Shown piece after piece: positions 2,493-4,040 of a stretch of DNA of 64,000 bases. This stretch comes from Patescibacteria group bacterium (GTDB lineage Bacteria; Patescibacteriota; Patescibacteriia; Patescibacteriales; UBA12465), in contig JBAZTY010000001.1 of NCBI GenBank assembly GCA_041661685.1, positions 320,691 through 384,690 on the forward strand. The letters run 5' to 3'. How positions within the stretch are numbered: the stretch's first letter is position 1; the number at the start of each line of letters is the position of its first letter. The notes beneath the pieces were generated by a model. The model was not told the DNA's origin, ran no database searches, and saw only the letters and a list, made by a program, of their open reading frames with translations. The position numbers were made by a program, and so were the translations under genes.

Positions 2493-4040
2493 CTATTTTT
2501 GATAAAAATCTTTGACCGCCTGATTAAAGTCATTTACTTTCTGATTATAATCGCTGACCGTCGCCTTGTAGGCACTCAAGTCGCTATTATACTTATTGAC
2601 CAGGTCATTATAGGTCGCTACCAGCGCATTATACTCGGATATCTGGCCGCTATCATAATAGGCGTCCATCTGAGACTTAAGGGCGCTGACTTCCGCTTCT
2701 TGCGTCTTCAGGGCGGCATCTTGAGCGTCCAGAACCGAGCTCTGAGAATTCAAATAGTCTTTAGACGCTTTCAAGGAGGCGACTTTAGCGCGGGTCGCAG
2801 CCACTCCGTAATAAAGCTGGCCGCTCGTCTTCTGGTATACCTCCATGGCTCCGAGATGGGCCGCATCAAAAAGGCCGGTGAATTCATCAGTGCCGGCTTG
2901 CGCCTGTCCGGAGCTAAGGCTAGGCGGCACGACGCCGAGCGGAAAATAATTCGTGGTCTCGCCATAGCAATACCCGGTGCCGTTCAAAGATTGATCGGTC
3001 GGGCAAGCGATGCCAACGGCGCTATGATTCGCCGTCGGAAAATCAAGAATAGCGACGCCATAACCGAGCCGGCGCAATAAGGCGACGGCTAAAAAAGTCT
3101 TATCAGAACAAACACCCTTATCCAGATACAGAGTCTCGTAAGGATAATAAGGATTATTATTACGGTTGTTCCCTGCCTCCAGCTTGGCGCTGTCGTAAGG
3201 GATGAACTGGACGAGAGCGAGCGTGAATTCCAGGGTCTCGTCATCTGTCCAATTATTATTCAACGCGGTCGCCTTTAATTTATAGATCAAATCATTAAGA
3301 GAGGTGTCCCCTGACTTAACGTTGAAGAATAAACCATAGAAAGATTCGCGCAAAGATGCGTCCGAAACGGTGGCGCCGGAATATGAATAGACTTTAGTCG
3401 AAGCCTGATAGGAATTATAAAGAGCAGAAGAAAAATTCTGATTAACGGTATAGTTATTGGTTTTATATTTAAAATTGAAGGCTAAGGGCGTATCGAGGCT
3501 GGTGCTCGTCGCCGGGACGCTCGTTCCGATTGAGGGCGTTCCGGACGTCGAAGAAGTTCCGCCGACCGAAGCGATTCTAATCTTAATCAGATCAGCGTTC
3601 GTGATTCCCAAACCGAACGAACGCATGACGTTAAAGGCGTCAGTCGGCCGGCCGAGATAATATAATTTCCGATTGAGCGGATTCACGTAATAAGCCTGCC
3701 CCTTATCCTGGACTTGGAGCAAGATGCGACCCGAAAGACGCAAAGGTGCGCCATTAACCTTAAAATTAGCCGTGTCGGCATTCGTTATGCCTAAGCCGAG
3801 CGAGCGCATGACGTTAAAAGCATCATCAGGACGGCCGAGATAATAGCGATACCCGTTAACCGGATTAACATACCAGGCTTCGCCATGAGCTTCGACTTGA
3901 AGCAAGATGCGGCCGTTAAGATTAGTCGCGGCTGAAACCGGAATGCCATTGAAGACAAAAGTCGCAAAAATAAAACTCGCCAGGAACATGATTACGCCGG
4001 AAATTTTCTTTATGCTTTTTGATGAGGCGATGATTTTCAT
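2493..4040 (-). CDS. Secreted or membrane-anchored protein: 2x GRILLQV module + transglutaminase-like core + coiled-coil tail
   Basis: 515-aa ORF with four parts:
- an N-terminal hydrophobic signal/anchor (GVIMFLASFIFATFVF)
- two ~50-aa repeats (GRILLQVEAHGEAWYVNPVNGYRYYLGRPDDAFNVMRSLGLGITNAD and GRILLQVQDKGQAYYVNPLNRKLYYLGRPTDAFNVMRSFGLGITNAD)
- a Cys/His core resembling transglutaminase-like proteases (DKGVCSDKTFLAVALLRRLGYGV...ANHSAVGI)
- a heptad-like C-terminus. Confidence 0.85.
   Translation of the reverse strand: MKIIASSKSIKKISGVIMFLASFIFATFVFNGIPVSAATNLNGRILLQVEAHGEAWYVNPVNGYRYYLGRPDDAFNVMRSLGLGITNADTANFKVNGAPLRLSGRILLQVQDKGQAYYVNPLNRKLYYLGRPTDAFNVMRSFGLGITNADLIKIRIASVGGTSSTSGTPSIGTSVPATSTSLDTPLAFNFKYKTNNYTVNQNFSSALYNSYQASTKVYSYSGATVSDASLRESFYGLFFNVKSGDTSLNDLIYKLKATALNNNWTDDETLEFTLALVQFIPYDSAKLEAGNNRNNNPYYPYETLYLDKGVCSDKTFLAVALLRRLGYGVAILDFPTANHSAVGIACPTDQSLNGTGYCYGETTNYFPLGVVPPSLSSGQAQAGTDEFTGLFDAAHLGAMEVYQKTSGQLYYGVAATRAKVASLKASKDYLNSQSSVLDAQDAALKTQEAEVSALKSQMDAYYDSGQISEYNALVATYNDLVNKYNSDLSAYKATVSDYNQKVNDFNQAVKDFYQK

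Follow-up and report, generated by a model that had tools for sequence, protein, structure and literature searches.

A paired module on exported proteins of Patescibacteria: a large lineage-specific family and a possible cell-envelope anchor

What would lead two secreted proteins with nothing else in common to carry the same tandem module, one directly behind its signal sequence and the other at its very end? The question is raised by a stretch of 64,000 nucleotides (the window) from contig JBAZTY010000001.1 of a Patescibacteria group bacterium (assembly GCA_041661685.1, positions 320,691 to 384,690), in which a module of about 58 residues, repeated with a period of 61, occurs in four copies, all on the minus strand. 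Two copies belong to a transglutaminase-like protein, here called protein A, and two to a propeller protein, protein B. We found that the module is a large lineage-specific domain family lying outside all the curated libraries searched. By analogy with the wall-binding modules of other bacteria we propose, with a probability of about one half, that the pair acts as a non-covalent anchor in the cell envelope of Patescibacteria.

A profile hidden Markov model (HMM) built from the four copies recovers every one of them from the six-frame translation of the window, with independent E-values (i-E) of 5e-37 to 9e-35, and no fifth copy, the next best match in that translation having E > 2. In protein A, copy A1 (3753..3926, residues 39-96, i-E 1.1e-36) begins 2 residues past the predicted signal-peptide cleavage site and is followed by copy A2 (3570..3743, residues 100-157, i-E 5e-37), which represents a second-position subtype, QDKGQAYY..KLYYLGRP. 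In protein B, copy B1 (29852..30025, residues 903-960, i-E 2.4e-36) is followed at the extreme C-terminus by copy B2 (29669..29842, residues 964-1021, i-E 8.8e-35), which has the subtype of A2. The consensus reads GRILLQVExxGEAWYVNPxxxxRYYLGRPxDAFxxMRxLGLGITNxDLxKI. Coordinates and HMM thus confirm what an earlier note on this DNA, made from the sequence alone, had described: two copies after the signal sequence of one protein and two at the C-terminus of the other.

Protein A (2493..4040, minus strand, 515 residues) consists of a signal peptide, the module pair, a Ser/Thr-rich linker, a transglutaminase-like core at residues 261-344 and a C-terminal coiled-coil-like region. The core matches the Pfam profile PF04473 (DUF553/transglutaminase-like) with 25.1 bits against a cut-off of 20.5 bits (hmmscan), and an identical NCBI protein, MFA6194439.1, from a Patescibacteria metagenome-assembled genome (MAG), is titled 'transglutaminase-like domain-containing protein [Patescibacteria group bacterium]'. 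The predicted signal peptide (3930..4040, minus strand, residues 1-37), read by eye, has a Lys-rich N-region, a hydrophobic core (GVIMFLASFIFATFVF) and a VSA motif, with cleavage predicted between ...IPVSA and AT. Protein B (29657..32731, minus strand, 1024 residues) has a signal peptide, also read by eye (32597..32731, minus strand, residues 1-45, cleavage between ...NSVSA and AY), followed by propeller repeats of the BNR/Sortilin type, an Ig-like domain at residues 668-739, an unassigned region and the C-terminal module pair; its Pfam scores of 90.1 bits for BNR_6, 92.9 bits for Sortilin-Vps10 and 61.4 bits for Bact_surface_Ig-like all exceed the gathering cut-offs. These assignments agree with the earlier description of both host proteins, and the statement that they are otherwise unrelated holds: outside the modules they share no sequence (best BLASTP E = 4.5). 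Directly downstream of protein B, on the same strand, lie four open reading frames (ORFs; 28933..29364, 28022..28909, 27621..27977 and 25648..27603) that read by eye as mraZ, rsmH, ftsL and a PBP2/FtsI-type transpeptidase, which are division and cell-wall genes.

How widespread is the module, and is it already known under another name? No match for the module region was found in Pfam-A at E <= 1 with either protein or with the single module (hmmscan). NCBIfam and PHROGs gave no module match, and two module profiles returned only chance matches from the PDB sequences (E >= 0.14). A search of the literature for the motif strings and for surface or anchoring domains of Patescibacteria found no account of the module. 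The earlier note could not place the module in a named family, which these searches bear out, and the characterised family with a different role onto which it might have mapped did not emerge from them. The family is nonetheless large. A profile search of 1.84 billion cluster representatives (clusters at 50% identity) matched 3,666 protein clusters at E <= 1e-3 and 2,547 at E <= 1e-30, the latter value being one that, judged from the bit scores of two-module proteins, would roughly divide pairs from single copies. At least 532 module loci were confirmed in species-representative genomes, taken as one genome per species.

Among clusters and genome loci alike, source names, where given, are almost all those of Patescibacteria: Falkowbacteria, Kerfeldbacteria, Uhrbacteria, Jacksonbacteria, Parcubacteria, "Patescibacteria group" and one Saccharibacteria. 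Many third-party MAGs that carry the module are titled "uncultured Gammaproteobacteria", and one "Bacillota". We consider these labels unreliable because one MAG of the former title (L002) shows synteny with the window and about 84% nucleotide identity to it, because many of these genomes encode full-length homologues of protein A, and because protein A itself is recorded at NCBI as a Patescibacteria protein. The mislabelled-looking MAGs with full-length homologues are L002, L004, L007, L017, L020, L021 and others, and L060. Two further observations concern the membership of the family. One member (P0003) is a 91-residue fragment made of module sequence only, whose JGI name, 'NDP-sugar pyrophosphorylase family protein', is without sequence support; and a sub-family (P0026, P0035, P0039-P0041, P0044, P0045, L084 and L085) has YM(K/R)DGxxAY in place of the conserved YLGRPxDAF.

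The architecture of the family is strikingly regular in one respect and varied in another. Exactly two modules are present in 149 of the 150 best-scoring members and in 76 of the 78 complete ORFs examined at genome loci. The first module lies within 60 residues of the N-terminus in 143 of the 150 members, with the pair C-terminal in 4 and internal in 3, in a list skewed to N-terminal pairs because the query profile held signal-peptide columns. The corresponding figures for the 78 genome loci, an independent set but one enriched for protein A homologues (40/78), are 67 N-terminal, 9 C-terminal and 2 internal, so that the module can indeed sit at either end of a secreted protein, as had been noted earlier. 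Spacing from module to module is either 60-71 residues or about 119-122; the longer value occurs in about half of the top members (for instance P0049, P0054, P0061 and P0066), and the window proteins have the compact spacing of 61. The long spacers are bacterial TSP3 calcium-binding repeats (DxDxDG), detected as Pfam TSP3_bac in 35 of 112 members. Such repeats are typical of surface proteins.

Among the same 112 members, 48 different Pfam families were found fused to the module, which supplies the tabulation of fused domains that the earlier note had called for. The partners include CAP (10 members), trypsin-like, M23 and C25 peptidases, GH10, staphylococcal nuclease (SNase), NAGPA, DJ-1/PfpI, PEBP, cupredoxin, propellers, fn3, LTD, PG_binding_1 and Transglut_core. 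In some small proteins the signal peptide is joined to nothing but one module or two. Any two modules are about 63-65% identical, whatever the protein or position they come from, a figure inflated by the fact that the 150 listed members are the best-scoring ones. Among orthologues of protein A, median identity is 69% in the module pair and 69.5% in the catalytic core, against 42-43% in the linker and coiled coil.

Homologues that share the non-module part of protein A account for 40 of the 78 related loci; they are about 440-515 residues long, with a median identity of 50% in that part. Protein A as a whole, with its pair, transglutaminase-like core and coiled coil, is widely conserved in the clade. 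A relative, L054 (OW818634.1), about 85% identical to the window at the nucleotide level in the protein A region, carries ORFs at 1082..4369 and 4419..5657. Its 1095-residue protein has a different N-terminal repeat region, and its last 380 or so residues are 60.6% identical to residues 649-1024 of protein B. What the two proteins share is therefore more than the module: it is a larger C-terminal cassette comprising the Ig-like domain, the unassigned region and the module pair. The product of the next gene in L054 is a coiled-coil protein in which an M23-like HLHFE motif was seen by eye.

Structure prediction points to the pair, and not the single module, as the folding unit. The AlphaFold2 model of a single module, made from a 37-sequence alignment, has a mean predicted local distance difference test score (pLDDT) of 70. 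The tandem pair, the prediction of which had been suggested in the earlier note, gives from a 61-sequence alignment a compact and pseudo-symmetric body with a pLDDT of 83.9 and a predicted template modelling score (pTM) of 0.73, and we view the pair as the unit that folds because of this gain in confidence and because the copy number is fixed. Each half of the model is arranged as strand-strand-strand-helix-strand-helix (E8-11, E18-21, E28-30, H34-44, E46-48, H50-59). Foldseek returned no match at E <= 0.001, whether for the single-module model against PDB or for the pair model against PDB and BFVD. A hit to the arm-binding domain of lambda Int (E = 0.7) was dismissed as a generic match of three strands and a helix.

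What could such a pair do? The module is exported, small and fixed in copy number, it has dozens of unrelated extracellular domains as fusion partners, at one end or the other, it is conserved at least as well as its cargo, and it is confined to one lineage. From this combination we infer both binding itself and the identity of the ligand. Exported enzymes and binding proteins of many unrelated kinds carry the pair, in most cases right behind the signal peptide and now and then at the C-terminus. Following export by the Sec route, the pair would bind a conserved component of the cell's own envelope, be it peptidoglycan, a wall-associated polymer or the S-layer, and so keep its cargo on the cell surface; here the cargo would be a transglutaminase-like protein of the cysteine-protease fold and a protein with a BNR propeller and an Ig-like domain. 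A ligand on the cell itself appears likelier than a host-specific one, given how little the module varies between lineages and habitats and given the many different hosts that these organisms presumably have; the wall-synthesis genes in the window may be cited on the same side. The earlier note had already thought of a cell-surface anchoring or wall-binding domain. Its picture of a mobile secreted module with the fusion pattern of a surface anchor has stood up well; the anchoring role is still something that we infer.

In role, the pair would be the Patescibacteria counterpart of SLH, LysM, CWB2 or SH3b modules. It resembles the anchors of Gram-positive bacteria (SLH, LysM, CWB2/CW_binding_2, choline-binding repeats, SH3b and GW) in being a short repeated module placed at either terminus of unrelated secreted proteins, and it differs from them in having no match to their Pfam families and a copy number fixed at two. 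LysM is built as strand-helix-helix-strand, SLH is helical, and SH3b consists entirely of strands; the order of elements predicted here differs from all of these and from the CWB2 fold. The SLH and CWB2 anchors are shared and swapped between proteins and are better conserved than their cargo, and for SLH a phylogenetic profile has been made with TagA (bioRxiv 10.1101/2025.04.02.646754). The Patescibacteria module is likewise swappable and conserved at least as well as the proteins that carry it.

The only structural lead takes us to another envelope protein. When Foldseek compared the pair model with the PDB, the periplasmic region of EccB5 (7nps_B1) came out on top, with an E of 0.048, a probability of 0.11, a query TM-score (TMq) of 0.18 and a root-mean-square deviation of 20 A; EccB was not among the Foldseek PDB matches of the single-module model (pLDDT 70). 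In the published description of EccB1, its repeats, four in number and 50-57 residues long, are each built of two helices and a four-stranded sheet; the first was noted to resemble the wall-binding protein PlyCB weakly, and it was proposed, without experiment, that EccB repeats touch peptidoglycan (PMC4769845). We compared the module with a profile of 119 repeat sequences drawn from 117 EccB1 homologues together with EccB1 and EccB3 of M. smegmatis; an EccB1 sequence was verified against 3X3M. The hhalign comparison gave E = 9e-4 and a probability of 22.9%, with 47 of the 62 columns aligned in register. The EccB score was reached in none of 300 column shuffles and, under the stricter control, in 4 of 250 block permutations that kept secondary-structure blocks intact. 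In Pfam, PF05108 (T7SS_ESX1_EccB) gave no match at E <= 1 (hmmscan).

The module is like the R1-R4 repeats of EccB (PF05108; PDB 3X3M, 4KK7, 7NPS) in size and, going by the published description, in its content of four strands and two helices, as well as in forming packed pairs in the cell envelope. It is unlike them in that EccB, anchored in the membrane, belongs to the core of an actinobacterial secretion machine, whereas the module moves about as a tag among exported proteins of many kinds. Proteins A and B carry unrelated cargo and signal peptides that look cleavable, where EccB has an N-terminal transmembrane anchor. No type VII secretion genes are found among the ORFs listed beside the two proteins. 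Shared ancestry with the EccB repeats is a tentative lead from two weak lines that agree, with the odds leaning against it. PlyCB itself, part of the streptococcal phage lysin PlyC (PDB 4F87), is comparable as a small strand-rich wall-binding domain with a helix; as a homologue it was discarded, as hhalign aligned a single column with a probability of 0.4% (sequence verified against 4F87) and PlyCB does not appear in the Foldseek list.

Several of these results weigh against an anchor. Established wall-binding domains show no significant similarity to the module in sequence or structure by Pfam, Foldseek or HHalign: SLH, LysM, CW_binding_1, CW_binding_2, PG_binding_1 and SH3 have no Pfam match at E <= 1 in either protein or in the single module, and PlyCB has no HHalign similarity to the module profile. 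The likeness to EccB is weak, as its Foldseek probability, TM-score and block permutations make plain, and EccB repeats also mediate protein-protein assembly. One family member carries a PG_binding_1 domain, which would be redundant if both domains bound peptidoglycan, and no obvious endolysin was seen among the module proteins inspected on viral contigs (L082, L084 and L085). Finally, an identity of about 65% between copies seems unusually high for a glycan-binding repeat, and docking onto a conserved protein would fit it at least as well.

This last consideration, together with the analogy to EccB, makes a serious alternative of the idea that the pair is a docking or oligomerisation module, dockerin-like, which plugs its cargo not into a glycan but into one conserved protein receptor, be it another pair, a subunit of the S-layer or a scaffold associated with pili. 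The copies are very alike and the two halves pack together in the model (pTM 0.73), so that a protein with a single module could conceivably pair with another; EccB, whose 7nps entry is titled 'periplasmic assembly', builds a periplasmic multimer with its repeats; and the small proteins that have only one or two modules behind a signal peptide would suit such a scheme. We nevertheless regard docking as unlikely, since a candidate receptor was not found, no conserved neighbour gene was seen (though no search aimed at one was made), and the conservation of about 65% is inflated by the sampling of best-scoring members.

Patescibacteria are largely episymbionts, and one could also imagine the pair as an adhesin for the surface of a host or prey cell that brings the fused enzymes onto it. 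A part in host attachment has been proposed for highly expressed secreted proteins that contain binding domains (PMC10936435), and proteases, nucleases and glycosidases of the kind found as cargo could plausibly act on a host. A host-specific ligand would, however, be expected to diverge, and the module is nearly invariant across many lineages and environments; moreover it is also found on proteins of four IMG/VR viral contigs. An adhesin seems to us quite unlikely. The strong preference for the site after the signal peptide (143/150 members, 67/78 loci) would be natural if the module were a tag for export, sorting or folding, similar to a pro-domain, which machinery specific to the lineage would read and which would not bind anything lastingly. 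Such a tag becomes less likely because the module also occurs at the extreme C-terminus, as in protein B and 9/78 loci, and in stand-alone small proteins; internal positions, the well-predicted globular fold and the absence of a cleavage motif after the module add to the case, and we hold a tag of this sort to be very improbable.

The viral contigs deserve a closer look. The module is carried there by proteins with signal peptides, on L082 (3905..4942), L084 (3905..4534), L085 (2957..4198) and L083. The architectures seen in L082, L084 and L085 are a single module with a proline linker and a trypsin-like protease, a single module with an unknown domain beside an integrase, and Cys-rich repeats with a C-terminal pair; the L084 and L085 copies are of the YM(K/R)DGxxAY type. 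As the viral copies inspected sit on other kinds of secreted protein, we rejected the notion that the module is the wall-binding part of phage lysins. L082 also has an ORF at 1930..2892 (minus strand) that looks like a papain-like cysteine peptidase (PHROG 16701 'peptidase', E = 9e-5), with a candidate analogue in L084 at 4596..5618 (minus strand). From its place between two ORFs for small membrane proteins (1652..1924 and 2895..3182), the peptidase may form a lysis cassette with them. The last 65 or so residues of the peptidase resemble the module by eye, and were considered as a remote copy. This too was discarded: hhalign gave E = 0.0095 over 20 columns, the peptidase has two homologues, one identical and the other without the tail, and nothing in the analogous ORF of L084 aligns with the tail.

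There remains the question of whether copies A2 and B2 have exchanged DNA. Across 3650..3725 and 29749..29824 (both minus strand), the core patches of raised nucleotide identity in A2 and B2, the two sequences are 85.5% identical over 76 nucleotides, and the 20-mer GGCCGAGATAATATAATTTC and the 17-mer CCCTTATCCTGGACTTG have exactly two occurrences each, those in the two core sites. The earlier figures of roughly 85% identity and of exact runs of 20 and 17 nucleotides were therefore accurate, and the patch survives proper alignment. The description of the DNA as near-identical is justified locally, over 76-84 nucleotides or so, and overstated for the module as a whole, in which identity over 174 nucleotides falls to 70% (78% at the protein level).

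The inference of recent shuffling or gene conversion, which had been drawn from this similarity, fares poorly, and conversion between the two genes now seems unlikely. Over the whole module the same codon is used at 22 of 44 identical degenerate residues, against 17.0 expected from codon usage (P = 0.07). In the core (about 84 nucleotides, module residues 9-37) the count rises to 19 of 25 identical codons with 87% DNA identity, whereas the flanks have 3 of 19, below expectation. Five control pairs of the same subtype, involving modules from an unrelated metagenome contig (P0005/L081) and from the 1095-residue protein of L054, gave 12-15 identical codons out of 24-27 and 75-81% nucleotide identity in the core, so the real excess of A2/B2 over the controls comes to about 7 nucleotides. 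A scan statistic for this excess has P of about 0.009, before correction for the six pairs scanned and with a window picked after looking. The excess is, in addition, common to the A2 orthologue of a relative with some 85% DNA identity, which is about 11% different in this module and shares 18 of 25 core codons with B2; against more distant A2 orthologues it is gone (13 of 24 codons). The B2 protein sequence is 84% identical to the P0005 module and 78% to A2, and the subtype, found only in second modules (10/150 family members), occurs in other organisms too. Since the excess is shared with the relative's orthologue, any conversion event must be old. These comparisons led us to reject a recent transfer of the whole module between the two genes. 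The similarity of A2 and B2 stems mostly from protein-level constraint within the subtype together with codon bias, and the core may at most record a conversion tract that is both old and short. At the DNA level the finding is mostly ordinary.

Patescibacteria make up a large share of bacterial diversity; these ultra-small organisms live attached to other cells, and most of them have not been cultured. Anchoring modules that can be swapped are familiar from Gram-positive bacteria, and an envelope anchor in Patescibacteria would belong to a known functional class and change no principle. Should ancestry shared with the EccB repeats prove true, a mobile anchoring module and a central component of a secretion machine would turn out to be related. 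It is tempting to go further and see in the pair a universal address tag of a Patescibacteria-specific system of surface display, in which one conserved envelope receptor would serve much of the exported proteome of these minimal cells and the module would share its ancestry with EccB; this we think doubtful, and offer as speculation. The module in any case deserves a curated profile, with which many "hypothetical" proteins would gain a meaningful domain. If the pair is indeed an anchor, its 120 or so residues would provide a reagent with which to fish for the envelope component that it binds. The surface proteins of Patescibacteria are central to their attached way of life and largely unannotated; with one easily recognised tag on thousands of exported proteins, the surface proteome of these organisms would become readable straight from their genomes.

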